Source: Candidatus Hydrogenedentota bacterium (GTDB lineage Bacteria > Hydrogenedentota > Hydrogenedentia > Hydrogenedentales > SLHB01). Taken from it: a stretch of DNA of 64,000 bases. Of this stretch, positions 2,719-20,778 are shown piece by piece; within the stretch, counting starts at the first letter, position 1, and every line of letters begins with the position of its first letter. The translations under genes were made by a program, and so were the position numbers. The notes under the pieces were generated by a model that was not told where the DNA came from, made no database searches, and saw only the letters and a list, made by a program, of their open reading frames with translations. The stretch lies in the NCBI GenBank assembly GCA_045863335.1, contig BTVY01000011.1, forward strand, positions 61,627 through 125,626, given 5' to 3'.

Positions 2719-2981
2719 GTGTGACATCTTCCGGGCCGCGCGGTACCAGTAGAGGCGCTGCCTTCTGTGGTTATTGAGGGTCCAAGGGGGCCAAGGCGCA
2801 GAAACGAACAGCAAGGTCTAGTGTGTCTTGGTGCTCTTTTGAAAGAGGTAGGAACAGCACGGTTCGCGGCGGTGCGGGGTTGTCGCGGGCTCTTGCCGAA
2901 AACTATGAGCAAAACGTATTCTCAGGCTCCTGACGAAACAACGTGCAGGGGCCGTTTTGCTTTTCGGTGGAGGAAACACAA

Positions 2982-5900
2982 GTGAAGAACTCAAGCGCCG
3001 GATTCCGAATTGTCACGTTTGCGGCCGCGGTCATGCTATTGGCCGTCTTCGTCCCCACCGCAACCGCCCAGAACGTCAACGTTGCCGTAACGAAAGACAG
3101 TACGGAGCCGCAATACATCCCCGGGTCCCTGATTACGTACACCATTGTCGTCTCGAACGCCGGGCCGGATGCCGCGAACGGCGTTGCGATCATGGACCAA
3201 TTCCCCAATGAAGTTTTCGTTTTCAATATCGACGTCACCTTAGCGGGTGGAGCGGTGCGAACTCAGATTAATGGGGATTTGACCCAGATCGACGACGTCG
3301 CCGACATGCCCGCGGGAAGTTCGATCACGTATACCGTTGAAGGCCAGGTTGGAAACGAAGGGGTTACTTTTAACGTTGATGACCTGTTGCCGGATACAGC
3401 GGCCCTGCTCCCCCTCAACGATTGGGCCCCTCTGTTTATCTTCACCATGGAAGCAGGGGAAGCTCCCGAGGAAGGGACGCCCATCGAGAATACGGTCGAC
3501 GTCACGCCCCCGCAAGGTTCAACCGATGCCAGCGCGAACGACGACAGCAGCACCGAAACCGACCTTATTCCAGCGACTGGCGAAGAACGTGAATTGGAGT
3601 CGTTGGTATTTCGAATCAAACCGGACCCCATCCCTGCGTCGGACCGCAGTTACAATACCAGTGGCTTGATTCAGCCCAGCGACATTCTCGAATACGCGGT
3701 CTTTGTCGACGGAAATGTCGATCCTGACGATCGCGGCACCTTCGACAGCGAGGACTTCCTCGTGGTCGGACGGTCCGGCACGGCCTATGCCGGGCTGCCG
3801 CTCATTTTCGACGTGGACGGCATCCACACGGGAACCGGCCTTCCTTTGGACAACGACGGGCCGGGGAATCTCCAATACGATATGGATTTCAGCGACTTCG
3901 AGATTAACGTGTCGTCCTCGGAAGACCCGATCAACTACATTCTCGTGGTTCGGACCACGGCGACTTGGCGCAATCTTCTCACGCTGGCCTACGACGTCAC
4001 CGACGCCCTGATGGTCCTGCCGAACGGCCTTCCGCCCGCCGGCAGTGATGGCAACCCTGACACCTACAATCCGCTGGACGAAGATCCGCTGGATCCCGAA
4101 ACAGCCTATTCATCGGCCTTCAGCGTGTGGGATCGCACCAGCGGCCCAGGCACCAATGCTGCCAATGATCCCGAGTTTGCGAACGCGTGGGCGCACCCGC
4201 GCCGGATGTACACGCCCCTTGCCGAGTACCGCCGTCCGCGTTTCGACGCCATCGGTACGGCCTTCGACCTCGTTACGGGCGAGTTCCTGGAACTCCGTCA
4301 ACTAATGCCCTTGGATAACTGGACCGTGCTCATGGGCATCGATTTGCACGGCGTGGCGGACCGGTTCGGCCCCGCAATATTGAAGGAGGTCAATGTAATC
4401 CTGACGGACATCGGGGCGAACCCCGTCGCACCGGCCGGCAACGGCGGCTTCAATCCGACTAACGGGTTGGAGACGTTAACCAGTGCTGTCGACAGTTTGG
4501 GCGGCGGCAATTTCGATCCGGATACTTCGATTCGCCGGGACTTCGGTTTCAATGGTCTGTGGGTATTTGCGGATACGAACGGAAATGCCGTGTTCGATGC
4601 GCCAACGCCCCTAGCCGGTGGCGGGGTTCAGTATAACGGCGACTATCCCATGTGGCCGGAATTCTACTACTTTAATGACTCGGGGTCGCCGGACGATCAG
4701 AACAATGGACTTCCCCGGTGGGAATATCTGGCTAATCCTCCCGGAGGCGGCGATCCCTGGTGGAAACTACGCATGCGGTTCGATATTGACGGCCGGAGGC
4801 GAGACCTGGCCGCGACACCGGCTGACGAGAACGACGCCGGCTGGTTGGCCCCGACCCCTGACGGCAACAGGAGCAGTTTCTTTACCGGGTTTTACAGTGA
4901 CTACTTCGTTGTCGTGCGGCCCGATAGTGGTTACGCGGACCAGCAGGCCTTGGGCGGCGACGGCGTCGGCATGACGATTGGCGCCGACTTCCGGGCCTTC
5001 ATCGAGCCGCGGCGGTTCAATCCCAACTCTGCCTTTGGCGGAGCCCCGGGCGGACAGTGGGACGGCGGGATATTTGTGTCATCCCAAATTCCGAGTGACA
5101 GCTCTATTCGTGAAGGCAACTATCAGACTACCGCATGGCAGGAAGACCCGCGCTGGGGCGTGTCGGAGCCGTGGTGGCCGCAGAGGACCTTGAACGAGAC
5201 CAACGCCAAGCCGGTCCGTACGGGCGCCGAAATCCATGACCTTGTCATCACGTACGAAACCAATAACCTGTACAGCCAAATCACCAATGTCAACTATGCA
5301 TCTGGACTCCTCCCCGAGGGTGGCGGAGTCGGCGGGTCAATCACGAATTTCGATCTCTGGCTTGACCCCTTCGGCTTGCGGGCGTCCACTTTCCAGAATT
5401 TCCATTCGGTCGGCGTAGGTGCGTGGCGGAACTTCATCAACGGCAACCCATCCGCCGATGACCACATTTTCAACGTGGTTCATTACCCTTACGAAACAGT
5501 GCCATTCTTCCTGGCAGAACACGATTTGCCGCCCTTCGGGCCGCGGTCGGCGTTCCTGCCGATCCCCGCGACGGCGACAACGTTGCCGGACTACTTCACG
5601 TGGCCGGCCTCGCTTCAGCCGGGCGAATATCCGAGGGAATCCCAATGGCCCTTGGCGCAGCGGGCATCACGGTATCTGAAGCAGCACATTGAACCCCAGA
5701 GCACGGCCACGGCCATGCTCGGGATTAACCTCGTGGGTGCGGACGATCCGACTGTCAACGCGATTCAGCAGATCAAACTCCAGCAGATTACGGTGGCATT
5801 CTGGGGTCCCAACTTCGATCCCGCCGTCGATCTGCTTGCGCTCGATCCCTTGGGGACATCGTCCACGTCGGGCGTCATGCTCGTGGAAGATATCTCCGGA

Positions 5901-8597
5901 GATGGCGTATTTGGAGCACAGATCACGCCCGTCGACGCCTTGAACATCGACGCGCCCGTTCAACTGACCAACCTGGCCTGGCGCACCGCTCCGGAACTGG
6001 TTGACTTGACCGGAGACGGCGTAGCCGACGACCTGAGCGGCGACGGCGTGGTAACCGATTTCGACAAGGCTTGGGTGCTTCGCATGCGGCCTGTCTCGCC
6101 GTGGCCTTTGCCCGTGCGCGACGCGCCGGGAGGGAACTTCCCCGGAACCACGGACACTGGAGGCGGTGGCACCGGCGGCGGTGGCGGCGGTGGTGACGAT
6201 GATGACGACGATGAAGAATTCCTTAAGAGTAATTTGGCTGCCGATCCCGGCAAGGGCTATTGGGCCAAAGAGCCGGTTACCTTGACGGAATCCGAAGCCT
6301 TGTCGGCGCTGGCGTCAGAAATGGCCGTATCCACCAAAGCGACCAAGGCGATCGGACCGGAAGGCAATCCGGGTGACGACCTGTTCCTTGTGGTCCGGAC
6401 ATCGGATAAGATCTCGCGCTTCGAGCAGTTCCGCGCGGTCGTGCCATCTACGTTGCCGGAACGTACGCTGCCCACAGACCGGGTGGCGGGAATCCAGCTC
6501 GAACCTCAGACGCCGATCAGTCAGAGCATCTACCAGAAGTCGCAGCCGGAAGAAAACGCGGTTCAACCGTACTACGGTCCGGCCCTTCCGACCTATGCCC
6601 CCGCCACGCCATGGCTGAGTTACGATTTCGGCTACGACATGATCGAAGCCAACATCGCCACCAAGCTGGTCGACCTGACCGGAACGGGCCAGATCATTTC
6701 CAAGAACAGCGGCGACGTGGCCGTATTGGGCATTGACCTAAGCACAAACCGTGGCACGTCCGTAGGCACGGTGGCCTCCGGATCCACGGGGGTCGGTTCT
6801 CCGGCGGAATTCACCGTGGCCGGCGCAGGGTGGACGCCCGGCGCGTTTACCGGCTACTTCCTCGTCGACAAGAACTACCAGTCCTTCCGGATTACGGGGA
6901 ACAACGCCAACCGGCTGTTCCTTCAGGCGAGTGCGAATGCCGCCGGCACGCCCGCATCGGGCGCGTGGCGCGTCGTGCGCGATCCGAGTTTCCTGGAACA
7001 GGTCATCATCGAGTTCTACGACGTCGGCCGGGATGGTGCCTTCAATATCCTCGATGACCTTCTTCCGTTGGACATCAATCCGAACCTGAGCGGCGTCAAA
7101 CTCTACCGCGACAACGACAACGACCCCGCGAACGAGAACGGCGTATTCGACAGCGCGGACATCCCCGTCCCGCTTGATTACGCGCCGTTCCAAATCGGTC
7201 AGGCGGGCGAACCCAGCACGCAGGTGATGATGGTCTTCTCCTCGCCGGGTACGGACAACATCCCGGTGGCCATCGCGAACCAGAAACGCCATCGCCAATG
7301 GATCTACGATACCTTTGGCACCGCGTCGTCTGATCCGGCCGCGGGCTCCGACTTCTTCGTGGTAATCAGCACTTCCGACGGTCTCCAGGTCGGCGACGAC
7401 TTCCGCGTCGGTCTGGTGTCCTGGGGTCCCAATACCCCGACGGAACCCGATCCCGACACCTTCCCGCCGCCTCCGGCGAGCCGGGTCGGCGAGTTCGACG
7501 TGTTCAGCGAATTCCCGTGGGGCGCGCGCGCGCTCGGGTTCATCACCTTCTTCACGGATCAGCCGTACTACAAGCAATTTCCGGAAGAAGACAATTCGGG
7601 ATTCGACTGGGTGCGTTCGACGGCAAACCGCAACACCCAGACGCGCACGATAACGGGTGCGGAAGACGTGGTGCAGGGTGACGATGTCGCCATTACCAAC
7701 GTCTTGCCGAGCCAGTTGCCGAAGGTTGTCGGCGGTGGCGGACTGACCTTGTCCATCACGGGACAGAACTTCGGTACTTCCCCGATTGTCACGCTGGATG
7801 GCGTCGCGTTGACGGTGGTGTCGGCGACGAATACCCAGATTCTCGCGACGATCCCGGGTGGCATCACGCTGGATTCGGACAACAACAATGTGGTCACGCT
7901 GAAGGTTACGAACTCGACCTCCGGTCAGTTCGATACCTACAACGGCTTCACCGTTGTTCCCGGCAGCGGCGGCAACGCCCCGACCATTACTTCGATTAAC
8001 CCGAGTTCCGGCGGGCAAACGGCTTTCCCCGTGACGATCACCGGCACCAACTTCGACGATCCCAAGGTGTTCTTCGGCGGCACCGTCATGCCGATCAACT
8101 CGTGGACGCCGACCAGTATCGTGGTCGGGTTCCCGGTTGGCGGGCTTCCGGTCACGGGACCGCTCGACGTTACCGTCCAGAATCAGGGAACCGGCCTGTT
8201 CGCTGTAGCGCCGGATGGGTTCAACTACATCAACAACCCCGGCGGTGGCGGCGGCGGCGGCGGTTTCCAGGGCGGCGGTGGCTTGCCCACCTGCTTCATC
8301 GCGACCGCAGCCTACGGGTCTCCGTTGGCCGGCAAGCTGGACACCTTCCGTGAATTCCGCGACGCGGTGCTTCTCAAGACGGCCGTCGGCGCGGCGCTGG
8401 TCGACCTGTATTACACGGTCAGCCCGCCCCTAGCCGACTACATTGCGGCCCACCCGGCGATTGCTGCCGCCGTGCGGCTGGCTCTGACACCGGTGGCGTG
8501 GAGCCTCGCGTCTCCGGTACTCGCGCTTACCACCTTCCTCCTGCTGTTGGCCGGCGCCTGGACCGCCCGCCGGCGCTGGAGTGCGGTGCGCGCATAA
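2982..8597 (+). CDS. Large secreted surface protein (1871 aa): DUF11-like domain, four repeated modules, two IPT/TIG domains, Gly linker, CFI-box-CTERM
   Basis: GGAGG at 2969-2973 before GTG 2982; signal peptide ending ATA|Q; VTK...TYTIVVSNAGPDAA motif; IPT motifs (ITGQNFG, ITGTNF); CFIATAAYGS at 8292 followed by FRDAVL...YYTVSPPLAD, a TM helix and RRR. Confidence 0.85.
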   Translation: MKNSSAGFRIVTFAAAVMLLAVFVPTATAQNVNVAVTKDSTEPQYIPGSLITYTIVVSNAGPDAANGVAIMDQFPNEVFVFNIDVTLAGGAVRTQINGDLTQIDDVADMPAGSSITYTVEGQVGNEGVTFNVDDLLPDTAALLPLNDWAPLFIFTMEAGEAPEEGTPIENTVDVTPPQGSTDASANDDSSTETDLIPATGEERELESLVFRIKPDPIPASDRSYNTSGLIQPSDILEYAVFVDGNVDPDDRGTFDSEDFLVVGRSGTAYAGLPLIFDVDGIHTGTGLPLDNDGPGNLQYDMDFSDFEINVSSSEDPINYILVVRTTATWRNLLTLAYDVTDALMVLPNGLPPAGSDGNPDTYNPLDEDPLDPETAYSSAFSVWDRTSGPGTNAANDPEFANAWAHPRRMYTPLAEYRRPRFDAIGTAFDLVTGEFLELRQLMPLDNWTVLMGIDLHGVADRFGPAILKEVNVILTDIGANPVAPAGNGGFNPTNGLETLTSAVDSLGGGNFDPDTSIRRDFGFNGLWVFADTNGNAVFDAPTPLAGGGVQYNGDYPMWPEFYYFNDSGSPDDQNNGLPRWEYLANPPGGGDPWWKLRMRFDIDGRRRDLAATPADENDAGWLAPTPDGNRSSFFTGFYSDYFVVVRPDSGYADQQALGGDGVGMTIGADFRAFIEPRRFNPNSAFGGAPGGQWDGGIFVSSQIPSDSSIREGNYQTTAWQEDPRWGVSEPWWPQRTLNETNAKPVRTGAEIHDLVITYETNNLYSQITNVNYASGLLPEGGGVGGSITNFDLWLDPFGLRASTFQNFHSVGVGAWRNFINGNPSADDHIFNVVHYPYETVPFFLAEHDLPPFGPRSAFLPIPATATTLPDYFTWPASLQPGEYPRESQWPLAQRASRYLKQHIEPQSTATAMLGINLVGADDPTVNAIQQIKLQQITVAFWGPNFDPAVDLLALDPLGTSSTSGVMLVEDISGDGVFGAQITPVDALNIDAPVQLTNLAWRTAPELVDLTGDGVADDLSGDGVVTDFDKAWVLRMRPVSPWPLPVRDAPGGNFPGTTDTGGGGTGGGGGGGDDDDDDEEFLKSNLAADPGKGYWAKEPVTLTESEALSALASEMAVSTKATKAIGPEGNPGDDLFLVVRTSDKISRFEQFRAVVPSTLPERTLPTDRVAGIQLEPQTPISQSIYQKSQPEENAVQPYYGPALPTYAPATPWLSYDFGYDMIEANIATKLVDLTGTGQIISKNSGDVAVLGIDLSTNRGTSVGTVASGSTGVGSPAEFTVAGAGWTPGAFTGYFLVDKNYQSFRITGNNANRLFLQASANAAGTPASGAWRVVRDPSFLEQVIIEFYDVGRDGAFNILDDLLPLDINPNLSGVKLYRDNDNDPANENGVFDSADIPVPLDYAPFQIGQAGEPSTQVMMVFSSPGTDNIPVAIANQKRHRQWIYDTFGTASSDPAAGSDFFVVISTSDGLQVGDDFRVGLVSWGPNTPTEPDPDTFPPPPASRVGEFDVFSEFPWGARALGFITFFTDQPYYKQFPEEDNSGFDWVRSTANRNTQTRTITGAEDVVQGDDVAITNVLPSQLPKVVGGGGLTLSITGQNFGTSPIVTLDGVALTVVSATNTQILATIPGGITLDSDNNNVVTLKVTNSTSGQFDTYNGFTVVPGSGGNAPTITSINPSSGGQTAFPVTITGTNFDDPKVFFGGTVMPINSWTPTSIVVGFPVGGLPVTGPLDVTVQNQGTGLFAVAPDGFNYINNPGGGGGGGGFQGGGGLPTCFIATAAYGSPLAGKLDTFREFRDAVLLKTAVGAALVDLYYTVSPPLADYIAAHPAIAAAVRLALTPVAWSLASPVLALTTFLLLLAGAWTARRRWSAVRA

Positions 8598-8706: not shown

Positions 8707-11091
8707 GTGAGCACGACAATTCGCACTGCCCTGCGCGTCTTCATGGTGGCGATTACGGCGGCAACCCTCGTACCCAAGGCCGGGGCATTCTACCCCCAGG
8801 GATTCTTCAACGAGTTTGGGGAACTCATCATCATCACATGGCCTATCGACGTTCTTGACCGAAACAATGACGGCGATGTCAACGGCCCCAACGATGGCGT
8901 CACCCTGAACTTCGAAACCGGCAACGGGGTGGACGGATTTACTACCAACGAAGTGGCCAAGATATTGGCGGGGTACGAAGAGTGGGAGCGCGTCTCCACG
9001 GCCTTCATTGCATTCCGGCAAGGTCAAAGCATTGTCGATCCGGTCGAGCTTACTGCCGGCCTCGACGGCATTGATGCTTTCAACATGGTTTCCTTCGAAT
9101 CGGAGGACGATGTCGAGAATAATGGCTCTCTCGTGGGTGATTCGCTTTCTATCACCCTTATCACGAACTCTTTTGAGGACACCTTCATTACCGTCGGAGA
9201 CTCGACCTTTCCGGTAACCGGCGGACAAATGATCGACGTGGATACGGTCATCGGCTTCGCCGCGCGCGAGATCGAGAACACGAGTGACGAAATCTCCCTG
9301 CAGGGGTTGGCCACCTTTACCGCGGGCCTCACCATTGGTCTCGGTTACAGCCCCCTGGCAAACATTGACGAGAACGCTACCGAGCAACTCGCCAACTTGG
9401 GCAAGTTCGTGAACGTGGAAGACCGGGTGGTAGCGATTCGGAATTTCGACGGCACCATCGGCACCCGGGGCGTGACGTCGACCATGCTGAACGACTTCGT
9501 CGTGCACGTCGAGGACAACGGTTCGCTCACGGACTCCCATCCCGACCTGGCGCCGGACGACATCGCGGCGGTCACCTATCTCTATCCGCGTTCCAGCATC
9601 GATATCTTCTTCGACCTGCACCAGCGCGTGCGCACCCAAGCCCTGGATGGCTACGCGTCCGAACCGATCGCCGGCGCGTGGGTCCGCGCCTGGTGCGACG
9701 CCGACAACAATCCGGGCACCGCGCGCGTTCCGTTCACCGACACCTTCACCGGCCTGTACGAATGGCAGGTGAACACCGACTTCCGGGGGCATTTCGAGCT
9801 CAATAACCTGATCAAACAACTCGAGACCGCTCAGGAGGTGAGCTTCGCAGCGAACTATACCTTCTCGTCCAGCGAATTCCTTCCTCCCATTTTCACCGAT
9901 GACGAGCGCAGCGTATACGATACAACCCACGGCGGTTTCACATTCGGGTCTCCGGATACCCCCGCGGGAGAAGGATTCGGCTTCGACACGCTCTTCCCAG
10001 CGGAAGTCTATTTCGAGGGCGAGAACCTCTTTGGCCTGCAGAATGTCAATCAAGGCACGCCGCTTTACTTTGATCTCAACACGCGCACCATTCGAAGCGT
10101 GACCAGCGGCAAGTCGCTCGATACGCTCCTGGCGACGGGGCGTCCCATGTTTGGCGATCAGAGTTCCGTTTGTCCGCTGAACGTGGTCGTGGCCGGGCTG
10201 GCCCCGATGCAAACCCCGTCTGTCTTCCGCGGACTGCGCGACGATCTCTTGCTCAACACGGCAGCCGGCACGGCACTGGTGGATGCATACTACCGCGCGG
10301 CCCCGACGATGGCTCAGTACCTCGTCGAGCACCGCAACGTTTTGGCCGCGGCCCGGCTGGTGGCTCGCGGGGTGGAATGGGCCGTCGTTCATGCCGAGCT
10401 GCTGCTTCTGCTCGTGTCGGGAGCATTGGTGACGATGCTCGCCGGCCGTTACTTGCGGCGTCGAAACGCCCGGGCCGCTTCTGCGCTGCTGCTCGCGGGG
10501 GGGATGTGCCTGATGGCCGCACCCGCAGACGCGCTCCTGTTGCCCTACGACATCTCCGACTACATGGAGCGTTCCTCCGACGTCATCCACGGCGATGTCA
10601 CGTCCGTTGAATCCTACTGGACTGAAAACAATACGCAGATTGTGACCGACGTGACCGTCTGCGTGAAAACCGCCATCAAGGGGTCGCAGAATGAAGGCGG
10701 GCTGGTTCACTTCCAACTTCCCGTTGGGAGGGTGGGCGCCGTTGGCCGGTTCTCGCCCGAAATCCCCAACTTCAAACGCGGCGAAGAGGTCGTCCTGTTC
10801 CTGAATTGCGGTGAACGGGGCTTCACGATTACGGGCGGAGTCGCCGGAAAGTACGCCGTGAAGGCGGACGCCCGAAGCGGCAAGAAGTACGTGCTGCCCG
10901 TGTCCTTCCCGGGGATGGATCGCCTGAAGAAGGAAGCCATCAAGATTCGCGAGCATAAGGCAGCCGAAGAAGGCGTCGAACTGGCGTCGGTAAACAAGGA
11001 AACCATTCCGGCGGCCATCGAGCTTCAAGAGTTTGTCGACCACCTTCGCCGGGTCGAACGGGAGCGGAATCAGGCAGACGATCGCGCCTAG
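8707..11091 (+). CDS. Secreted matrixin-like (metzincin-fold) pseudoprotease with internal CFI-box-like domain and a second signal peptide plus C-terminal domain (794 aa)
   Basis: AAGGA RBS before GTG 8707; signal peptide ending AGA|F; matrixin-like context (EEWERVS, IDVDTVI, SLQGLAT-FTAGLTIGLGYS, STML, LAPDDIAAVTYLYP); CPLN...FRGLRDDLL...YYRAAP at 10171. Confidence 0.7.
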   Translation: MSTTIRTALRVFMVAITAATLVPKAGAFYPQGFFNEFGELIIITWPIDVLDRNNDGDVNGPNDGVTLNFETGNGVDGFTTNEVAKILAGYEEWERVSTAFIAFRQGQSIVDPVELTAGLDGIDAFNMVSFESEDDVENNGSLVGDSLSITLITNSFEDTFITVGDSTFPVTGGQMIDVDTVIGFAAREIENTSDEISLQGLATFTAGLTIGLGYSPLANIDENATEQLANLGKFVNVEDRVVAIRNFDGTIGTRGVTSTMLNDFVVHVEDNGSLTDSHPDLAPDDIAAVTYLYPRSSIDIFFDLHQRVRTQALDGYASEPIAGAWVRAWCDADNNPGTARVPFTDTFTGLYEWQVNTDFRGHFELNNLIKQLETAQEVSFAANYTFSSSEFLPPIFTDDERSVYDTTHGGFTFGSPDTPAGEGFGFDTLFPAEVYFEGENLFGLQNVNQGTPLYFDLNTRTIRSVTSGKSLDTLLATGRPMFGDQSSVCPLNVVVAGLAPMQTPSVFRGLRDDLLLNTAAGTALVDAYYRAAPTMAQYLVEHRNVLAAARLVARGVEWAVVHAELLLLLVSGALVTMLAGRYLRRRNARAASALLLAGGMCLMAAPADALLLPYDISDYMERSSDVIHGDVTSVESYWTENNTQIVTDVTVCVKTAIKGSQNEGGLVHFQLPVGRVGAVGRFSPEIPNFKRGEEVVLFLNCGERGFTITGGVAGKYAVKADARSGKKYVLPVSFPGMDRLKKEAIKIREHKAAEEGVELASVNKETIPAAIELQEFVDHLRRVERERNQADDRA

Positions 11092-11156: not shown

Positions 11157-11561
11157 TCTGTCAAAGAGCCGCTGGCGGGGGAGTGATCCACCCGGCCGAA
11201 AACCCGCATTTCCCGGCACGGACCATACCCGGCGCAATGTCAGGAGAGTTCCGCAATTCAATCCGTAACATTGCATCGACTCAGGTGGTCCGATAGACTG
11301 TGGGCTCTTCGGCGGAACGGTGCGCTCGGATGCGTCAACCTTGATTCCCGGCAGTGCGTTACCCCAATGTTATTAACGGCTTCGAGATACGTGCCCGCGT
11401 AGCCGGGATTGGCCGGTGAGCGTAGCCCCAGCGCGAGGGCGGGATCTGCCAACCGCAACGCTATATCTAGCCGCCCGCTTGCGGGTGACCGCAAGAACTT
11501 GGGTGGAAAATCGCCACGACGTGCCGCGGGTGCGGGACACGAGAGTGATACGGAGGATAAC

Positions 11562-12482
11562 ATGGTCAAGGGCCTGCTCATTCGACAGGCGTTTGTCATT
11601 ATCGATCTAGGGCTCGCCCTGCTTGTTGCGTTTGTGATGTATCTGATTGCCGAGCAACAGTTGGAATCGCGGGCGCCTAAGGTGAGCCTTCCTCCCATCG
11701 ATCCGGGTGAAGGATCGAACGTAGAACTAGCCAAGCTGGGACCGCAGAACGAGTACGACGTCATTGGAAGCAGCGGTCTTTTTGGCGCGGCGGGAGACAT
11801 GGCCGAGCCGGCCCAAACCGAGCTACCCCCTGTAAGCATGGAGCCGCCGCCGCCGACCCTGCGTTTGCACGCAACTGCGGCCACGGGAGGCCCCGAAAAC
11901 CGGCTGTCCACGGCGATCATCGAGAATAGCGCGGCCCAGTCCGTCCAGAAAATCTCTGCCTACTACCTCGGCCAGCCGGTAACGGACGAACTCGTATTGA
12001 AAGAGGTCTACCCCCGGAAGGTCATTCTAGAGAATCCGACAAAGAACTCGTTTTCCGAACTGCTCATGGCCGAAGCCGATGAGAAGCCGTCGCAGGCAGT
12101 GGCGGCGATGGCAGCCCGTCAACCCCGTCAGCCGGTCCAAACGGCACAGAATACGGATGCAATCGCGTTGGACCGCAACGCGGTCGCGGAGGAATTGGCG
12201 ACGTACGACTACGCCGACGTGGTCAATACGCTCAATCCCGAAATGGCCGAAGACGAGAACGGCAACGTCACGGGGATTACGTCCTCGAATTTTGCCGCGG
12301 TGCCGCTCGCGGCCGAAGTGGGCCTGCAGAACGGCGACGTCATCAACACGGTCAACGGCATCAAAATCGACAGCGACCAGAAGCTCATGGAAATATTCAC
12401 GAAGTTTTCAAACGCGAGCACCTTTCGGCTAGGCATCACGCGGAACGGTTCGCCGCAAATGCTCACGTTCAAATTGGAGTGA
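11562..12482 (+). CDS. gspC: Type II secretion protein C with PDZ domain
   Basis: GGAGG at 11552-11556; N-terminal TM, HR-like domain (TLRLHAT...STAIIEN...LKEVYPRKVIL), C-terminal PDZ (GLQNGDVINTVNG); first gene before the secretin. Confidence 0.85.
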   Translation: MVKGLLIRQAFVIIDLGLALLVAFVMYLIAEQQLESRAPKVSLPPIDPGEGSNVELAKLGPQNEYDVIGSSGLFGAAGDMAEPAQTELPPVSMEPPPPTLRLHATAATGGPENRLSTAIIENSAAQSVQKISAYYLGQPVTDELVLKEVYPRKVILENPTKNSFSELLMAEADEKPSQAVAAMAARQPRQPVQTAQNTDAIALDRNAVAEELATYDYADVVNTLNPEMAEDENGNVTGITSSNFAAVPLAAEVGLQNGDVINTVNGIKIDSDQKLMEIFTKFSNASTFRLGITRNGSPQMLTFKLE

Positions 12483-12492
12483 CCAGCGGAAG

Positions 12493-15093
12493 ATGGATAG
12501 GATGACCAGTGGCTTCAGAATCCCTCGACGGGCAGACCGGGCGCTTCGCCTTTTAGTTCCAATGCTAGCACTCGTTCTGGCGACTCCGTCCCTGCGCGCA
12601 CAAGATGACACAACCCCTGCTCCCCTCGGTTCCGCCGTTAACACTGACCGGGGGGATGGAGAAGCGAAGGGGAGACGCGCGGAACGCAAGCGACAGCGGG
12701 CGGCCGAAACCGCAACGGAATCCGAGGTCGCACCAGAGAATGGTTTGCCCGAAGCCGCCGATCCCGGTCCGGAACCGGAACTAGCCCAAGCCGCGACGGA
12801 AGCTCCGGATGTGTCGATGCCGAATTCGCCCGTCGTTCTCCCGCAGGGCGCCGTGGCAACGTCGCGGGCGGCCGAGGGTCGGCAGGCGCCCGGGGCAACC
12901 GCTGAGGACGTCAGGCAGATCGGAACGCCGCAGGAGTCTCCCGAACTGCCGGAAAACGAATACCGCATCAAGTCCGGCGAGCCCACCAACAAACCAATAC
13001 GATTGGATGTGGACAACCAAGACCTGGGAGTCGTCATTCAGATGCTCGCGCCCATGATTGGCAAGACCTTCGACATCGACCAGCAGGTTGCGGCGCAAAA
13101 AGTGACCGTTATCAGCCACGACGAGATTCCCGCGGACATGGCCTATTACGTGCTCGAATCCATACTCGCGTCTCGCGGCATGAAGATGGTTCAGACGCTG
13201 GACGGGAATCTCATCAAGATTCGTCCGATTGGCGAAGATCTTGCCTATGCCCCGATTGTCGTCGATGGCGAAACCGAGCCCGAAGGATACGATAGCTACG
13301 CGTATCACATCGTTCAGGTGAACTACGGGGATCCGGTTGAACTGTCGAATCTGCTGAAGACGGTGGGGTCGAACCAGGCCCAGGTGAACGTGTACGCCAA
13401 AACGCGCACCTTAATCCTCTACGATACGGCTGTCGGCCTTCGGAATATGCTCAAGTTGCTTGAGACCGTGGACTTGCCCGGTTACGACGAGGCCGTCGAA
13501 TTTTTCTGGTTGAAGTTCACCCGTGCCGAAGTCATTGCGGAACAGATCGAGCAAGTGCTGCTCGGCGGCGAGGGCGAGGCCCAGGCCGGGGCGGTTCCTT
13601 CGGCGCCCCAGGTTCGTACGCCGGCCACGTTGCGCGCCCAGCGACAAACGGCGCTTCAGACGGAATCTACGATCATCGGCGCCGAGTTTTCGCTTCGCAT
13701 GGTGCCCGACGAAAGGCTCAACGCGCTCATCGTGGTTGCGTCGCAACCGCTCATGGAGCAAGTTCGCGACTTGGTGGAACGGCTCGATACGCCCACAACC
13801 CCCGATACCAACAATTTCCACGTGCGCGAATTGCTCCACGCCGACGCGGAAGCGATGGAGACTGCACTGAACGCCATGATCGGCGGCGTGTCGCCTCGTC
13901 AAACCGGAACCGGCGGCGGGGGCGGCGGACAGCAAGGGGCACCCGTCGCAGCCGGAACCGGCGAAGTGCAGCCCTTCGAGAAGCAGGTCACCATTACCCG
14001 CTACGATCAAACGAACGCGCTGCTTATTGTCGCGTCGCCCCAGGACTTCAAGGTGCTCGACAACGTCATCGCGCAACTGGACGTGCCCGCCCGGCAAGTC
14101 CATGTGGAAGCGCAAATCCTCGAAGTCTCCATCAACGATCGGTATCGGCTCGCCGTTGAGTCCGCCGGGCTGACGGCAAACGACTACTTTGCCTTGAACA
14201 ATGTGGTGAATTTGGCCAACGTGTTGACGCAAGGCCCCCTCGGCGCGCTGGAAAACGCGGAAGACATCTTGAACGTCGGAATTATCGACGGGACGACCGA
14301 GATTACGCTTCCAGACGGCGCGGGCGGTTTCATTACGCAGGAGATTCCAAACATTCCACTCCTGCTTACCGCGCTCGAATCGTTGACCGCGCTGGACGTG
14401 CTCTCGCGGCCCAGCCTCACCACCGTGGACAACGAAGAAGCCCACATCCTCGACGGTCAAGAGGTTCCGGTGATCACAGGGTCGCAGCGTCCGCTGGATT
14501 CCGGTTCCGGCGTTACGACCAGTAGTCTGTTCAACCAGACGCAGCGCCGCGACGTGGGTATCCAATTGACGGTTACGCCCCAAATAAGTGAGGGCGATTA
14601 CGTGTTTCTGGAACTGGAGGTCTCCGTCGAACGTCCAATTCAAAGCACGATCGGGCTTGATCCCAACCTGGTCGGTCCGACGTTCTCAAAGTCGGAAATC
14701 ACGAACAAGGTGGTAGTTCGGGACGGGTCCACCGGCGTGCTGGGCGGGCTCATCAGCGAAAGCACCGATCGCTCGAAGCGCCAAACCCCTATCCTGGGCG
14801 ATGTCCCGGGCTTGGGCTGGTTGTTTCGCAGAAAAGACGACCAGCGCGGCAAGCGCAACCTCGTTGTTCTGATCACGCCGCATATCATGAAGGAGGGAAT
14901 CGACTATGACCGCAAGACCGAAGCGGAAATCGACTACGCCACCAAAGCGAATGCGGATATCCTGTTTGAGAAGGGCTTTATCAAGAAAGTGACCGGCAAG
15001 CACCAGATGCGGCAGGACTATCGGCCGACCGAATCCGCGCTCGAAGAAGTGCGGTCTGAACAAGGTTTCCAGCGCGGAGATGTATCGAGATAA
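12493..15093 (+). CDS. gspD: Type II secretion secretin
   Basis: Signal peptide; N0-N3 domains (DERLNALIV, YDQTNALLI); secretin core QVHVEAQILEV, GIQLTVTPQI, PILGDVPGLGWLF, LVVLITPHI. Confidence 0.93.
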   Translation: MDRMTSGFRIPRRADRALRLLVPMLALVLATPSLRAQDDTTPAPLGSAVNTDRGDGEAKGRRAERKRQRAAETATESEVAPENGLPEAADPGPEPELAQAATEAPDVSMPNSPVVLPQGAVATSRAAEGRQAPGATAEDVRQIGTPQESPELPENEYRIKSGEPTNKPIRLDVDNQDLGVVIQMLAPMIGKTFDIDQQVAAQKVTVISHDEIPADMAYYVLESILASRGMKMVQTLDGNLIKIRPIGEDLAYAPIVVDGETEPEGYDSYAYHIVQVNYGDPVELSNLLKTVGSNQAQVNVYAKTRTLILYDTAVGLRNMLKLLETVDLPGYDEAVEFFWLKFTRAEVIAEQIEQVLLGGEGEAQAGAVPSAPQVRTPATLRAQRQTALQTESTIIGAEFSLRMVPDERLNALIVVASQPLMEQVRDLVERLDTPTTPDTNNFHVRELLHADAEAMETALNAMIGGVSPRQTGTGGGGGGQQGAPVAAGTGEVQPFEKQVTITRYDQTNALLIVASPQDFKVLDNVIAQLDVPARQVHVEAQILEVSINDRYRLAVESAGLTANDYFALNNVVNLANVLTQGPLGALENAEDILNVGIIDGTTEITLPDGAGGFITQEIPNIPLLLTALESLTALDVLSRPSLTTVDNEEAHILDGQEVPVITGSQRPLDSGSGVTTSSLFNQTQRRDVGIQLTVTPQISEGDYVFLELEVSVERPIQSTIGLDPNLVGPTFSKSEITNKVVVRDGSTGVLGGLISESTDRSKRQTPILGDVPGLGWLFRRKDDQRGKRNLVVLITPHIMKEGIDYDRKTEAEIDYATKANADILFEKGFIKKVTGKHQMRQDYRPTESALEEVRSEQGFQRGDVSR

Positions 15094-15095
15094 CC

Positions 15096-16832
15096 GTGTC
15101 TACTGAACGACCGACATTGCTTGGCGAAATACTCGTCGCCCACGGCCACGCCCATCAGGAGCAGGTGGACGAAGGGCTTGAGTTGCAGCGCATTCGTCCC
15201 AAACGTATTGGCGAGATCCTCATGGATGTCGGATACGTGGAGGAGGAGCACGTTCTCGAAGCCTTAAGCGACCAGTTCTCCATCCCCTACGAAAAGAACA
15301 TTCACGAGTCGCTGGATTCGTCCCTCACCACAAAGGTGCCGATCAACTTCATTCGCGAATATCGCATGGTGCCATTCCGCCAGAACGGTTCCGCTTTCTA
15401 CGTCGCCATTAACGATCCCGTCAACCTGCTCCCGCTGGACGATCTCCGGTTGTTGCTCGGAGGCCCCGTGCTTCCGGTGCTGTGCCGGGAAGTGGAAATC
15501 CAGCAGGTCATCGACAATTATTTCGATCAGCAGGGCGAAAACGCGCGCGATATGATCGACAACATCGTGTTGTCTGGCGACGACGATGCCGACATCCCTT
15601 CTCTGGACGGGCTCGATTCCGAACGCGACCTGCTCGATCTTGCGAACGAAGCGCCCATCATCAAACTCATCAATCTGCTCATCTCCGGCGCGGTGAAGGA
15701 ACGGGCATCGGATATTCACGTCGAACCTTTCGAGCGGGAGGTGCGTGTCCGGTACCGCATTGACGGTGTGCTCTACGAGAAATTGTCGGTACCCAAGTCG
15801 CAGCAGGCGGCCATCATCTCCCGTGTGAAGATCATGGCGAACCTCAATATTGCCGAGCATCGCCTGCCCCAGGACGGACGCATCAAGATCCGGCTCAGCG
15901 GCAAAGAGATTGATATCCGCGTGTCCATCATCCCCATTGCTTACGGCGAACGCGTCGTCATGCGTATTCTCGAGAAGGGCAATTTCCTCTTCGGGCTCGA
16001 AGAACTGGGCATGGACCAGCACGACTTCAAGTTGTTCAACAAGCTCATCACCAGTTCTCACGGCATCATCCTTGTGACGGGGCCGACGGGATCGGGAAAA
16101 TCGACCACCCTGTATGCCGGCCTGCAACGGGTTAGTTCGCCGGAATTGAACATCATCACCGTCGAAGACCCTATTGAATACCAGATGCCCGGCATCGGCC
16201 AGATTCAGGTGCGCCCCAAGATCGGCCTTACGTTCGCTGCTGGTTTGCGCAGTATTCTTCGCCAAGACCCGGACGTCATTCTCGTCGGCGAAATCCGCGA
16301 CCTCGAAACGGCGGACATGGCCATTCAGGCGTCCTTGACCGGTCACCTGGTGTTTTCCACGCTCCACACCAACGACAGTTCCGGCGCCATCACGCGACTG
16401 GTCAACATGGGCATTGAGCCATTCCTCGTGAGTTCGTCCACGATCGCGATCCTGGCGCAGCGCCTGGTCCGCAACATCTGCAAGCATTGCAAGGAAGAGT
16501 ATGAACCGGAACTCGAGAGCTTGCTGGAACTGGGATTGACCGAAGACCAGGCCCGGGGAAAGACGGCGTTTCGCGGGCTCGGCTGCGAGCGCTGTCAGGG
16601 ACGCGGGTATTTCGGCCGGACTGGTATTTTTGAACTGCTCGTCATGACGGCTCGCGTGCAGGAACTGACCCTGCAGGGCGCGGATTCCAATGTCATCAAA
16701 CGTGAAGCCAAACGGGAAGGCATGCGCACGCTTCGGGAAGACGGCGCCTCCAAAGTATTCAAGGGCGTGTCAACGATCGAGGAGGTGATGCGCGTTACTC
16801 GAGATGACATCCTCATGGAAGTGACGGAGTAG
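15096..16832 (+). CDS. gspE: Type II secretion ATPase with MshEN-like N-terminus
   Basis: ASDIHVEP, RYRIDG, Walker A GPTGSGKST, TVEDPIEY, LRQDPDVILVGEIRD, CKHC/CERC Zn motif; lies between gspD and gspF. Confidence 0.95.
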   Translation: MSTERPTLLGEILVAHGHAHQEQVDEGLELQRIRPKRIGEILMDVGYVEEEHVLEALSDQFSIPYEKNIHESLDSSLTTKVPINFIREYRMVPFRQNGSAFYVAINDPVNLLPLDDLRLLLGGPVLPVLCREVEIQQVIDNYFDQQGENARDMIDNIVLSGDDDADIPSLDGLDSERDLLDLANEAPIIKLINLLISGAVKERASDIHVEPFEREVRVRYRIDGVLYEKLSVPKSQQAAIISRVKIMANLNIAEHRLPQDGRIKIRLSGKEIDIRVSIIPIAYGERVVMRILEKGNFLFGLEELGMDQHDFKLFNKLITSSHGIILVTGPTGSGKSTTLYAGLQRVSSPELNIITVEDPIEYQMPGIGQIQVRPKIGLTFAAGLRSILRQDPDVILVGEIRDLETADMAIQASLTGHLVFSTLHTNDSSGAITRLVNMGIEPFLVSSSTIAILAQRLVRNICKHCKEEYEPELESLLELGLTEDQARGKTAFRGLGCERCQGRGYFGRTGIFELLVMTARVQELTLQGADSNVIKREAKREGMRTLREDGASKVFKGVSTIEEVMRVTRDDILMEVTE

Positions 16833-16836
16833 CGCG

Positions 16837-18057
16837 ATGGCGGTTTTCGAATACGAGGCAATGGCCAAGAGTGGCAAGGCGGTCCGCGGCATTATCGACG
16901 CCGACACACCTGCAGCCGCACGCCGGAAACTCCGGGAACAGGCCCTTTACCCCACGAAGCTGGAAGAGACGTCCGCGAAGTCGGCTTCGGGCCGTGGCAA
17001 GGGCGAGTCAAGCACCAGTTTCAGCCGCGTTTCCAACCGGGACGTGGCGATCATGACGCGCCAGTTGGCGGTCCTGTTGCAGGCCGGGATGCCGCTCGTC
17101 GAAGCCCTTGGCGCATTGCTTGAGCAGACCTCCAATCAACGCCTGCGAAAGACCATCTACGAAGTCCGCGACCGCGTCAACGAAGGTGTCACGCTCGCGG
17201 ATTCGCTAGCGGCGCACAGCCGGATATTTTCCGAACTCTACGTGAACATGGTGCGGGCGGGTGAAGCGAGCGGCGCATTGGAAAGCGTTTTGCTCCGCCT
17301 CGCGGACATTCTCGAACGCCAGGTGCGGTTGAAAAACAAGATCGCGTCCATGCTGGCCTATCCCATCCTCATGGCGCTCGTCGGCACGGGCATCATTACC
17401 TTCATGATGGGGTTCATCGTTCCCAAGATCGTGCAGATCTTCGAGAAGCAGCAGCGGGAACTTCCCCTGGTGACCACGATCATGATCACCACCTGCAACT
17501 TCATTCGCGAGTGGTGGATTCTCATTTTGCTCTGTATCGCGGGCGGATTTGTACTGTGGCGCATCTGGGTGGGCCGTCCCGAAGGGCGCCGCCGCTGGGA
17601 TGCTATCAAGCTTCGCATGCCCGTGATGGGCGCCCTCTACGTCAAGATGATCAGCGCCCGGTTCTCGCGAACCCTCGGCACCATGCTGCAGAGCGGCCTC
17701 ATCATGATGACCGCCCTGGACGTGGTAAAGAGTGTCGTCGAAAACAAGGTCGTCGAAAATGCCATGGACGACGTGAAGAGCGGTGTCCGCCGCGGTCGTG
17801 ACCTGACGGTCCCCTTGCGGGAAACGGGCGTCTTTCCGCCCATGCTGATTCATATGGTGGAGTTGGGGCAGCGAAGCGGCGAGTTGGAGAACATGTTGAT
17901 CCGCGTGGCGGACACCTACGATGAAGATATCGAGATGACGGTAAACGGCATCGTTAGCTTGCTGGAGCCGCTCATGATCGTCGTGATGGGTGTTGTCGTC
18001 GGTTTCCTGGTGTTTTCCATCCTGCTGCCCATATTCGACATGAGTTCCGGAATTTGA
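16837..18057 (+). CDS. gspF: Type II secretion inner membrane platform protein
   Basis: RQLAVLLQAGMPL, GEASGAL, YPIL, FSRTLGTML, LLEP motifs; three TM segments. Confidence 0.95.
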   Translation: MAVFEYEAMAKSGKAVRGIIDADTPAAARRKLREQALYPTKLEETSAKSASGRGKGESSTSFSRVSNRDVAIMTRQLAVLLQAGMPLVEALGALLEQTSNQRLRKTIYEVRDRVNEGVTLADSLAAHSRIFSELYVNMVRAGEASGALESVLLRLADILERQVRLKNKIASMLAYPILMALVGTGIITFMMGFIVPKIVQIFEKQQRELPLVTTIMITTCNFIREWWILILLCIAGGFVLWRIWVGRPEGRRRWDAIKLRMPVMGALYVKMISARFSRTLGTMLQSGLIMMTALDVVKSVVENKVVENAMDDVKSGVRRGRDLTVPLRETGVFPPMLIHMVELGQRSGELENMLIRVADTYDEDIEMTVNGIVSLLEPLMIVVMGVVVGFLVFSILLPIFDMSSGI

Positions 18058-18071
18058 CGAGGAGAGGTCCC

Positions 18072-18536
18072 ATGAACGCAACATGCATTTCCCACTCAGA
18101 CCGGCGGTCCCTGTCAGCGAGCCGGAACGCCCAATCGGGGTTCACCCTGATCGAGTTGATGGTCGTGATTGTCATCCTGGGTCTGCTCGCTGCCGTGGTG
18201 GTGCCCCGGTTCATCGGCGCAACGGACGACGCGAAGGTCGCCGCCGCCAAGACGCAGGTACACGCCTTTCGCATGGCGCTGGACATGTACAAGCTGAAGT
18301 TCGGCAATTATCCAAAGACCTCGGAAGGGCTTCAGGCGCTCATTAACAATCCGAAGCAGAATTTCCTTCAGGAAGAGAACATTCCGCCCGATCCTTGGGG
18401 CAATCCCTATCAGTACACCGCTCCGGGCAATAACGGCCGCGATTACGATCTCCAGTCGTTTGGCGCCGACGGTGCGCCCGGCGGCACCGGGTTCAATGCG
18501 GACGTCCAGAGCTGGAACCTCCAGGCGAGCGAGTAA
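18072..18536 (+). CDS. gspG: Major pseudopilin
   Basis: G|FTLIELMVV prepilin site; ALDMYKL...YP..EGL.AL, DPWGNPYQY, SFGADG..GG.G..AD. Confidence 0.95.
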   Translation: MNATCISHSDRRSLSASRNAQSGFTLIELMVVIVILGLLAAVVVPRFIGATDDAKVAAAKTQVHAFRMALDMYKLKFGNYPKTSEGLQALINNPKQNFLQEENIPPDPWGNPYQYTAPGNNGRDYDLQSFGADGAPGGTGFNADVQSWNLQASE

Positions 18537-18548
18537 CGTGAGCAGGTC

Positions 18549-19358
18549 ATGGACATTCGCGACCACAGATGCGAACCTACCTTGCGATGCAAACGTGGAA
18601 CGACCGGCTTCACGCTGATCGAACTCGTTTTCGTCGTCGGGCTTATCATCGTCGTGCTTGCGATTGCCATGCCCCGATTGTTGCCCGTCTTCGCCTTCAG
18701 TCAACTGGAGGGTGCCGCCCGCCATATCGCGAATTACGGACGTTCCACCGTCGCCTATTCCGCCTTCAGCCAGGAACCCGTCACGTTCCGGTTCGATTTC
18801 GAGACTGGCAAGTACGTGGTGCTTCGCTGGGTCGAGAAGGAAGACGAAAGTATCTTTGAAGGCTCCGACCTTGCCGTCCAGAACACGCAGTTTGAGTTGA
18901 ACGCGGAGACGGCCCTGCAGTTGGCCAATCAACAGGGGCTTTCGCCGGAAGATCGCGCGCTGCAAATGATCGAGTTCGAGCGGCAACTCGACCTGGCCTT
19001 CCGGAAGTCGCTGGAAGCCCGGGCAAAGAACGTACCCCGCGAAGGCATGCTCTCCGAAATCGATCCCCTCGCCGAGTTCGACTTCTCGCTGGACGAGGAG
19101 GAAGAAGAACTGCGCGAAGAGCTTCATACCTCGACCATCGAACCGACCGTGCTTCCTGAAGGCGTCACCATGCAGTCGATCCGCGTTGGCGTCGAGGAAT
19201 TTGTCGCTGGAGCGGTCGATGTCGAGATCACCCCGGTCGGGCTTACGGAGGAGGTTGTCTTCCTCCTGCAAGGGTCGGACGGCGACACCTATTCCGTTGC
19301 CTGGGACCCCATCACTGGCGGCGCGCACCTGTCCCACGGCGAGGTGCTGCCATTATGA
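18549..19358 (+). CDS. gspH: Minor pseudopilin H-like, with acidic insertion
   Basis: G|FTLIELV prepilin site; position directly after gspG. Confidence 0.8.
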   Translation: MDIRDHRCEPTLRCKRGTTGFTLIELVFVVGLIIVVLAIAMPRLLPVFAFSQLEGAARHIANYGRSTVAYSAFSQEPVTFRFDFETGKYVVLRWVEKEDESIFEGSDLAVQNTQFELNAETALQLANQQGLSPEDRALQMIEFERQLDLAFRKSLEARAKNVPREGMLSEIDPLAEFDFSLDEEEEELREELHTSTIEPTVLPEGVTMQSIRVGVEEFVAGAVDVEITPVGLTEEVVFLLQGSDGDTYSVAWDPITGGAHLSHGEVLPL

Positions 19359-19807
19359 AGCGTCTACGCAAAGGCGAGTCCGGTTTCACACTCATCGAAG
19401 TCATGATCGCCATGGCCGTACTTGGGTCCGCGCTCTTCGTGTTGCTGCAGGCCCACCACGGCGCGCTCAGCGTACATAACGAACTGCGCGACGAAGTGCT
19501 CATGAGGAACCTGATGGCGCTGGCGGTGGGCATCGCCGAGGTCGAGGTGGCCGGCGGCAATCTCACCGACTCCCAGGAGTTCGGCGACCGGTATCCGGAT
19601 TTCGACTACTCCTTTGACGCGCAACCCGTGGGCGAAGGCTATCCTGCGTTGTACGACGTGCTTGTGAAAGTCACCGGTCCCAACGTCGAGCGGGAGATTC
19701 ACACCTTCATGTTCACCCGTGATCCGCAGGCGTTCCTGGCCGCGGGACTGAATCCCGAGGCCATTGCCGCCGCGCAGCAGGGCGGCGGCGTCGAGGTCGA
19801 AGAATGA
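19355..19807 (+). CDS. gspI: Minor pseudopilin I
   Basis: G|FTLIEVMIAMAVL; 150 aa; ATGA overlaps with neighbours. Confidence 0.8.
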   Translation: MKRLRKGESGFTLIEVMIAMAVLGSALFVLLQAHHGALSVHNELRDEVLMRNLMALAVGIAEVEVAGGNLTDSQEFGDRYPDFDYSFDAQPVGEGYPALYDVLVKVTGPNVEREIHTFMFTRDPQAFLAAGLNPEAIAAAQQGGGVEVEE

Positions 19808-20778
19808 AGCGCGCAGGGTTCACCTTGATCGAAGTGCTTATCGCGATCTCCATTCTGTCGGTGATCGTGCTGGTCCTTTACGCAAGCTTCAGCAGCGTCA
19901 CCAACACCATGGAAGCCGCGCGCGTCAGTTCCGAAGAATTGCGCCTGCGCATGTTCCTGCAACGCAGCTTTCGCTCGAATCTCATGTCCATCTATACCGA
20001 CCGCACGATGGAGAACGAAGTCTTCCGGTTCGTGGGCGTCGATGATGAAACGCGGGATGGTCCCAACGACAATCTTCGTTTTGTGTCCGTGAATACGCTC
20101 ATGGGCGGCAAGGCCCTGCCAGGCGACCTCAAGGAGGTGCGGTACGGGACCATCGGCGGCGAGGAATCCGAGTTCAACCCCATCGACTTCAATGAGGATT
20201 CCGACTCGCCACTTGACGATCAGCTCAAGCTGCAAGCCTTGGAGACGCCCATTTTCGGGTCGAATGCCCAGGAACTCGATGAGGAAACCGGATTCCTCAA
20301 GCCGTCCGAAGAGAGCGAATCCAGCATGGGCATCGGGGAGACTCCGACCTATGAGGCCCCCTCGTGGTCGGTGCCGATTCGAACGGTAGATTTCTCCTAC
20401 TTCGACGGGCTCGAATGGGTAGACGAGTGGGATTCGCAACTCGTGGGACGGATCCCGTGGTGCGTTCGCGTGCGCATCAACTTCGCCCGCACCGAAGAGC
20501 AACTCGAAGAAGAAAAGCGCGAACGACTCGACATCCTGGAGTACCCGGACTTCGACATGGTCGTTCCGCTTCCGCCAGGGTTGGGCACGACACAGGACGC
20601 ACGATCCTTACAAGAACTCTCCGAGCTTTCCGACGAAGAGATTGGCGACATCAGAAACCCGGCCGAAGAGGAAGCGCAAAAACCCGATCAGGTAATTGGA
20701 TCCCCAGGTGGCGGGGCCGATTCCCAGCGCGGAGGCAGACGCGGGGGACGGAGTCTTGGTGGAGGCATCTCGCAATGA
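19804..20778 (+). CDS. gspJ: Minor pseudopilin J
   Basis: G|FTLIEVLIAISIL; FSYFDG.EW.DEW...P.CVRVRI C-terminal motif. Confidence 0.85.
   Translation: MKRAGFTLIEVLIAISILSVIVLVLYASFSSVTNTMEAARVSSEELRLRMFLQRSFRSNLMSIYTDRTMENEVFRFVGVDDETRDGPNDNLRFVSVNTLMGGKALPGDLKEVRYGTIGGEESEFNPIDFNEDSDSPLDDQLKLQALETPIFGSNAQELDEETGFLKPSEESESSMGIGETPTYEAPSWSVPIRTVDFSYFDGLEWVDEWDSQLVGRIPWCVRVRINFARTEEQLEEEKRERLDILEYPDFDMVVPLPPGLGTTQDARSLQELSELSDEEIGDIRNPAEEEAQKPDQVIGSPGGGADSQRGGRRGGRSLGGGISQ

Follow-up and report, generated by a model that had tools for sequence, protein, structure and literature searches.

The gene considered here encodes a protein of 794 aa in a 64,000-nucleotide stretch from a Candidatus Hydrogenedentota bacterium (contig BTVY01000011.1 of assembly GCA_045863335.1; this whole stretch is referred to as the window), and we discuss it as a polyprotein from which a matrixin-fold and a TIMP-fold protein are predicted to be produced. 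Among described systems, it is comparable to the complexes of TIMPs with matrix metalloproteinases (MMPs), such as TIMP-1/MMP-3 (1uea) and N-TIMP-3/TACE (3cki), in the predicted folds of both partners and in the modelled docking at the active-site cleft. According to the available part of PMC3003256, the N-terminus of the inhibitor is generated there by signal peptidase, as is predicted here, and TIMPs lose their activity once the alpha-amino group is blocked or extended; such a need for a free alpha-amino group would be a reason for using an internal signal peptide instead of a plain linker. The window-type domain differs from TIMPs, however, in that it has no Cys1, no disulphide pattern and no Pfam TIMP match, and the system as a whole differs in that a single chain supplies both partners, the cysteine-switch pro-domain is absent and half of the proteases are zinc-less.

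A bacterial metzincin and an exported TIMP-like protein within one transcription unit are also found in the Mtz-Tim system of Listeria monocytogenes, which we liken to the present gene by its description in the accessible text of PMC8235301, rather than by sequence comparison. In Listeria, however, two genes are involved and Tim is a lipoprotein that is cut by Mtz; in the same accessible text, the authors state that they found no prior record of bacterial TIMP-like proteins. Pairs of the serralysin-AprI type, as cited in that text, likewise comprise a co-encoded cognate inhibitor, which acts through a zinc-NH2 bond, but the inhibitor fold is another and the genes are separate. The Cys-containing CTERM sorting signals (MYXO-, JDVT- and Synerg-CTERM; available parts of 10.1101/2023.06.07.544157 and PMC11980579), together with the NCBIfam family CFI-box-CTERM, share with our protein an invariant Cys, a transmembrane (TM) helix, an Arg cluster and a link to type II secretion, whereas in the window protein the signal lies within the chain, with a second signal peptide after it, and reads CPL rather than CFI. 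The same unnamed C-terminal domain stands directly after the signal peptide in bacterial proteins of the layout signal peptide, TIMP-like domain, matrixin (P0091 and P0171-P0174) and in stand-alone proteins composed of a signal peptide and the TIMP-like domain; in these, unlike in the window protein, the order is reversed, the partner is part of the same chain or encoded by another gene and no internal signal peptide is found. Production of two proteins from one gene by means of an internal site of the signal peptidase type, located behind membrane helices, has reportedly been described for the cytochrome b-c1 precursor FbcH of Bradyrhizobium japonicum, although its products are said to be respiratory subunits that are both membrane-bound, with no sorting signal and no protease-inhibitor logic. 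Each ingredient thus has a precedent (TIMP-MMP, Mtz-Tim and the b-c1 precursor). In the accessible portion of the mostly open-access literature that was searched, however, no description was found of a bacterial polyprotein that combines protease and inhibitor and is divided by an internal signal peptide, and hence of the one-gene arrangement.

We consider it likely that the gene encodes a Sec-exported polyprotein that is processed by signal peptidase into a membrane-anchored metzincin and a TIMP-like cap, in a 1:1 ratio and each with the free N-terminus it needs. Signal peptide 1 would export the matrixin-fold domain, and the cut at A27/F28 would directly yield its mature N-terminus, with no pro-peptide. 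The CFI-box-like segment and the helix behind it would then halt transfer and anchor this first product in the inner membrane, while the Arg patch would remain cytoplasmic and serve also as the n-region of signal peptide 2, from which export would restart. A cut at A609/L610 would release the TIMP-fold protein, the new N-terminus of which would insert into the active-site cleft of the partner, as in the case of TIMPs and MMPs. This product would correspond to the pro-domain of the SP-TIMP-like-matrixin proteins, provided in trans at 1:1. In zinc-binding members, it would hold the protease latent during export, and in zinc-less members, including the window copy, the two would stay together as a heterodimer with a folding or structural role. 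The first, anchored product would probably be handed to the adjacent type II secretion system. As to its origin, the gene likely arose when a protease-CTERM gene became fused, by read-through, to a TIMP-like gene downstream that carried its own signal peptide.

The fusion of two exported parts in one open reading frame is real. The gene lies on the forward strand at 8707..11091, starts with GTG at 8707, preceded by a ribosome-binding site (AGAAAGGA, 8690-8697), and ends with a stop codon at 11089-11091; no promoter or terminator signals above chance were seen in 8500-11700. A full-length search returned 16 proteins, 15 of which, the window's own included, measure 781-806 aa, and all eight of the named proteins among the full-length matches belong to Hydrogenedentota. 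Of a set of 164 proteins, 163 match the C-terminal domain. Among these, 72 are full-length fusions of the same layout, which measure 738-1163 aa and share 28-74% identity with the protein of the window; 19 are truncated at the N-terminus but have the junction, 71 are short (stand-alone or fragments), and one has another layout. Four further fusions were found later and are outside all counts of 72 given below. In addition, a genome scan seeded with two motifs of the N-terminal part, which would also detect split genes, yielded 15 loci (L001-L015; by record title, 13 Hydrogenedentota, one uncultured and one Nitrospiraceae). The junction is covered in 14 of these, L001 stopping short of it, and none of the 14 has a stop codon there. 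The initial annotation, which was made from the window alone, had listed Cys489 at 10171, the CFI-box-like segment, the TM helix, RYLRRRNAR, ADA at 10525-10533 and a tail of 185 aa, all of which are found at these positions, and its reading of the gene as fused rather than split holds, as no split form was found; the result it had named as refuting, a stop codon or frameshift behind the TM helix in homologs, was seen in 0 of the 14 loci. In view of the 72 divergent fused proteins and the 14 open junctions, a fusion artefact was rejected.

Two of the loci deserve separate mention. The only short protein in the full-length search (P0017, 458 aa) corresponds to L010, where a frameshift within the N-terminal part, at about 11500-11700, divides the gene into two database proteins, P0017 and P0166 (347 aa), and leaves the junction intact; a sequencing indel is possible. 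The locus titled Nitrospiraceae (L008) is 82% identical to, and fully syntenic with, the Hydrogenedentota locus, which suggests either mis-binning or transfer.

The prediction of two cleavages is based on the comparison of both signal peptides across the 72 proteins. Signal peptide 1 (residues 1-27, 8707..8787) has its predicted cut at A27/F28, with no pro-domain behind it; column 27 is Ala in 68 of 72 proteins, column 28 is Phe or Tyr in 70, and the median length ahead of the cut is 27 residues. Further along the chain, the hydropathy profile of the 72 shows, in this order, a helix, a basic patch, a second helix and a polar c-region. In the window protein, these are the TM helix (residues 565-580, 10399..10446), which may act as a stop-transfer anchor, the Arg-rich patch RYLRRRNAR (residues 581-589, 10447..10473), which would end the sorting signal and at the same time form the n-region of signal peptide 2, and the h- and c-regions of signal peptide 2 (10474..10533), with a hydrophobic stretch at residues 590-605, ADA at -3 to -1 and the predicted cut at A609/L610, 185 aa before the end of the protein (from 10534). 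In every one of the 72, the 8-residue window ahead of the h-region contains 3-6 Lys or Arg, while the h-region itself (-16..-7) contains no charged residue and has a mean hydropathy of 2.2-2.7. At the internal site, the -1 column is Ala or Gly in 70/72 and the -3 column Ala, Ser or Val in 66/72; when the domain start is projected by hidden Markov model, small residues stand at both -1 and -3 in 60/72, as compared to 1-4 at offsets +1..+6. With a signal peptidase I site matrix trained exclusively on N-terminal signal peptides, 57 of them from this protein set, the best internal site lies at most four residues from the domain start in 63/72, most misses being due to the preceding helix. The signal-peptidase-I-like sequence noted in the initial annotation is thus borne out, and cleavage by signal peptidase I at this site is predicted with high probability.

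The N-terminal product (matrixin/MMP-fold domain, residues 28-297, 8788..9597) is predicted to have the metzincin catalytic fold. An AlphaFold2 model based on 71 sequences (pLDDT 83.7, pTM 0.78; an alignment of 15 sequences was insufficient for the N-terminal half) was compared with known structures by VIA-align, in which residues ~31-297 matched MMP-2 with Z 10.6 (rmsd 3.8, 154 aligned), MMP-9 with Z 10.1 and AprA with Z 9.9, and the Atlas placed the domain at 0.91 to PF00413 clusters. In sequence searches, 25 of 28 zinc-motif fused homologs match PF00413 (10 reach the cut-off), while the window protein does not; Pfam gave nothing for either of its large domains, a search of the PDB by sequence returned nothing useful and the same was true for hhalign of the N-domain alignment against P0173. 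The window copy appears catalytically dead: where homologs have His, Glu, His and His, it has F204, T205, L208 and Y214 (9316..9348), and as the zinc ligands are all replaced, it should be considered a pseudoprotease. The Met-turn is nonetheless kept (M260, 9484-9486; Met at column 260 in 67/72). HExxHxxGxxH is present in 35/72 homologs, with one more having Ala in place of Gly, and on a FastTree tree of 71 rows (P0039 was excluded due to an insertion), the state of the zinc motif changes 11 times, at least nine of which are forced by well-supported branches. An N-terminal cysteine-switch pro-domain is typical of MMPs, whereas here the catalytic fold starts straight behind signal peptide 1 and none of the 72 has a pro-peptide; active members would thus need another brake. 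The remainder of this product is a beta-sandwich domain (residues 298-485, 9598..10161), assigned weakly as CnaB/transthyretin-like from Z 6.2-6.8 to pilin and related domains. The insertion in P0039 (1163 aa) is a second zinc-metalloprotease domain (NF038122, E 5e-20) lying within the matrixin domain of this fused member.

For the C-terminal product (185 aa, 10534..11088), whose N-terminus should be free upon release, the models point to a TIMP/NTR fold, the NTR/OB fold of the inhibitory N-terminal domain of TIMPs. The best VIA match was N-TIMP-3 (rmsd 2.9, 117 of 121 aligned; model residues 609-788 on chain residues 1-121), all of the top ten rows were chains of TIMP or NTR modules (TIMP-3, agrin NtA, complement C345C, PCOLCE1 and TIMP-1) and, as leads only, the nearest Pfam-bearing Atlas clusters were TIMP, NtA and NTR, at 0.82-0.86. 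As residue 1 of TIMP-3 aligns with model residue 609, the start of TIMP falls on the predicted cut. The domain can thus be regarded, on the basis of the models, as TIMP-like in its working, although it is not a member of the TIMP family.

When residues 28-486 and 610-794 were modelled together, the complex scored 0.79, while the best of three controls scored 0.00; contact agreement between runs was at least 76% and the pLDDT of the partner at least 80. The modelled interface comprises partner residues 610-614 and, on the matrixin-fold side, residues 204, 208 and 213-214, at the zinc-ligand positions, and residues 262-264, which follow the Met-turn. The model places the new N-terminus of the partner in the active-site cleft of the matrixin-fold domain. 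In our judgment, the two products quite probably bind each other, and it is somewhat probable that in zinc-binding members such binding inhibits the protease. The initial annotation had proposed that the two domains be modelled together and read the gene as a permuted enzyme/pro-domain or chaperone arrangement; the former has now produced a predicted complex, and the latter has gained a possible mechanism, namely the TIMP fold and the modelled docking at the active site, although the term enzyme fits only about half of the family, the window copy being a pseudoprotease.

This interpretation has some weaknesses that need to be considered. The fold scores of the C-terminal domain are middling (Z 9.3 to N-TIMP-3, Z 7.1 over the same residue range in a second model, Foldseek E 0.006), PF00965, the TIMP family of Pfam, is unmatched, with no Pfam family found at E 1, and Cys occupies +1, the position of TIMP Cys1, in only one of the 72. 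Gln, found there in 19, could cyclise and so block the amine. The mark for the complex score, which was reached by 116 of 157 solved pairs and two of 215 mismatched pairs, applies here only roughly, since our own paired alignment was used; the high score may also stem from the resemblance to MMP-TIMP complexes already solved, and the best-defined modelled contacts are not those of the N-terminus, but the strand pairing of 149-156 with 677-683. The signal peptidase matrix is home-made. Finally, the full zinc motif is missing in 37/72, such that inhibition cannot be the sole role of the partner, and all 15 loci carry zinc-less members, so that synteny with type II secretion genes is seen for zinc-less members only.

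One alternative is that the polyprotein is indeed cleaved, yet the TIMP-fold product is a folding chaperone, a secretion adaptor or a substrate-binding enhancer, bound by beta-strand pairing. Such a role would suit the strand-to-strand nature of the strongest modelled contacts and the presence of the domain in the half of the family that has no zinc ligands. The NTR modules of PCOLCE1, agrin and complement, which score within 1.2 Z of TIMP-3, are moreover not inhibitors, and Listeria Tim, in the accessible description (PMC8235301), is cleaved by the metzincin with which it is paired and works alongside this protease instead of opposing it. The modelled contact of the N-terminus with the zinc-ligand positions and the lack of a pro-peptide in all 72 argue instead for a cap, and in our view a purely non-inhibitory partner is rather unlikely. 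The rarity of Gln at +1 in zinc-motif members (2/35, as compared to 17/37 zinc-less members; Fisher p 1e-4, kinship ignored) also speaks against it, though not independently of kinship. The same distribution was tried as a sign of co-evolution with enzyme death; it was not significant on independent pairs (median p 0.25) and is not used as support.

If no second cleavage occurred, the two hydrophobic segments would form a helical hairpin within a two-TM protein with both domains outside. The topology permits this, and internal cleavage by signal peptidase I is rare in bacteria; the Ala-X-Ala pattern of the internal site, however, is kept as well as that of signal peptide 1, often with a helix-breaking Pro ahead of it, and the predicted cut coincides with the point at which stand-alone relatives, after their own signal peptide, and TIMP-3 begin. 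Lack of cleavage is accordingly very improbable. Slightly less credit still is given to an in-frame internal start just ahead of the Arg patch, which would make signal peptide 2 an ordinary N-terminal one. In the window, two in-frame start codons are present, GTG at 10429, with GGAG five bases ahead of it, and ATG at 10435, but L008 lacks both codons, L007 has no in-frame start within the 41 codons tested, and the Shine-Dalgarno strength of 15 junctions is no better than that of 140 in-gene windows (p 0.14). Internal translation start was thus rejected as a conserved mechanism, and it would also leave unexplained why a stop codon never follows the TM helix. That two functionally unrelated exported proteins were joined for co-expression only, or by faulty assembly, is hardly credible, for even though stand-alone copies of the domain abound (at E 0.001, its profile matches 10,603 clusters, formed at 50% identity), the 72 divergent fusions and 14/14 loci, the complex model and the fusion of both domain types in reverse order elsewhere speak against it.

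The reverse order was seen in all five of the long matches that are not of the fused type (P0091 and P0171-P0174), in which the domain stands at the N-terminus and is followed by an HExxH domain, recognized as PF00413 in three. Kinship with the window-type domain is indicated by E 1e-17 to 1e-36 and by hhalign (98.5%). As 8,000 candidates were scored in the search for this layout, it can be said to exist, yet is not established as the usual one; the statement in the initial annotation that the domain usually precedes matrixin-like domains thus stands for these five proteins, while the close relatives without the fusion are mostly secreted proteins in which the domain stands alone. NCBIfam gave nothing useful for 36 stand-alone relatives; the family has neither a Pfam nor an NCBIfam model, and a plasmid search with P0132 gave nothing useful either. 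The Atlas clusters nearest to the domain are hypothetical proteins of Myxococcota and Pseudomonadota. In P0091 (707 aa), a tandem pair of TIMP-like domains follows a lipoprotein-type signal and precedes an active matrixin.

The internal sorting signal (10171..10377) starts with Cys489, in a column that is Cys in 71/72 and is followed by Pro in 65, so that the signature reads CPL and not Cys-Phe-Ile. The NCBIfam model NF041770 (CFI_box_CTERM) covers residues 505-551 with E 2.4e-9 and 36.9 bits, below its cut-off of 40, and the isolated fragment reaches 41.0 bits; among fused homologs, 23 of the 24 tested match the model and 9/24 reach 40 bits. As in CFI-box-CTERM, a TM helix and an Arg cluster stand behind the domain, yet 205 residues lie beyond the Arg patch, which agrees with the earlier description of the segment as non-terminal, and the upstream gene carries NF041770 at its true C-terminus (91 bits). 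In P0092, the CFI box is swapped for a different, shorter Cys/TM/Arg signal while signal peptide 2 is retained, and the anchor therefore appears exchangeable, in contrast to the second signal peptide. This replacement (residues ~500-566, Cys/Gly-rich, with TM and Arg), to which none of the CTERM models of NCBIfam corresponds at E 0.01, is possibly another sorting signal, its likeness to Cys-type signals having been judged by eye. Matches to midcut-by-XrtH (E 0.3) and CheD (E 0.02), as well as that to DUF4131 over the hydrophobic junction, were set aside as far below cut-off. No paper on the CFI box was found in the accessible part of the mostly open-access literature searched, and the accessible main text of 10.1101/2023.06.07.544157 does not mention it.

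The surroundings of the gene offer a candidate export route. Upstream on the same strand, in 15/15 loci, lies a gene (2943..8597 in the window) for an exported protein of 1884 aa with DUF11, two IPT/TIG domains and a normal terminal CFI-box-CTERM. Downstream, a type II secretion operon (11409..23422, forward strand) is a constant neighbour, with gspC and gspD identified by Pfam and the later genes, gspE-L, read from their sequences; gspC was found in 13 of the 14 loci having downstream sequence. Other proteins with Cys-type CTERM signals are cut, probably lipidated and brought to the surface via type II secretion, according to the available parts of PMC11980579 and 10.1101/2023.06.07.544157, and by analogy the window protein may take the same route, although sorting at Cys489 together with type II export is only tentatively put forward. 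Other features of the region may be mentioned. The upstream CFI-box protein has Gln directly after its predicted signal peptide in 7/7 copies (window 2943-8597, L002, L003, L005, L013, L014 and L015), which recalls the pyroglutamate 'Q-rule' of Bacteroidota. A gene for a TPR and soluble lytic transglycosylase protein (window 464-2509) stands upstream of the CFI-box gene in 7/15 loci and ties the locus to envelope remodelling. Another cluster, for secretion or a type IV pilus, can be read from the sequences at 24556-56714, with two further PilB/GspE-type ATPases, PilT-, PilC- and PilM-like genes, giant proteins of 2194 and 2141 aa and a secretin-like open reading frame with a long Gly-Gly-Gly-Asn-Phe repeat (53607-56714).

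Processing of polyproteins at internal signal peptides is familiar chiefly from viruses, with very few bacterial genes reported to use it, and if our interpretation is true, a clear and widespread bacterial case would be added. To annotation pipelines, the gene is a single hypothetical protein, and both products go unnoticed. A 'C-terminal' sorting signal would be able to function inside a chain, which would make the unstudied CFI-box signal testable, a function would be named for a very large family that has no model, and a bacterial partner of MMP-like enzymes that has the TIMP fold but is cysteine-free would bear on the origin of TIMP-MMP control. For the broadest form of this view, we consider the case evenly balanced: a lineage-wide polyprotein would reuse the Arg tail of its sorting signal as the start of signal peptide 2, delivering from one ribosome a membrane-anchored MMP-like protease and its cysteine-free TIMP-fold inhibitor with exact free N-termini; through the released domain, a first access would be gained to an unnamed family of more than 10,000 clusters, whose members would act on bacterial matrixins as pro-domains or inhibitors and from which TIMP-MMP control may have its prokaryotic root; and through repeated loss of the zinc ligands, many of the pairs would have become surface heterodimers that are non-catalytic and linked to type II secretion.

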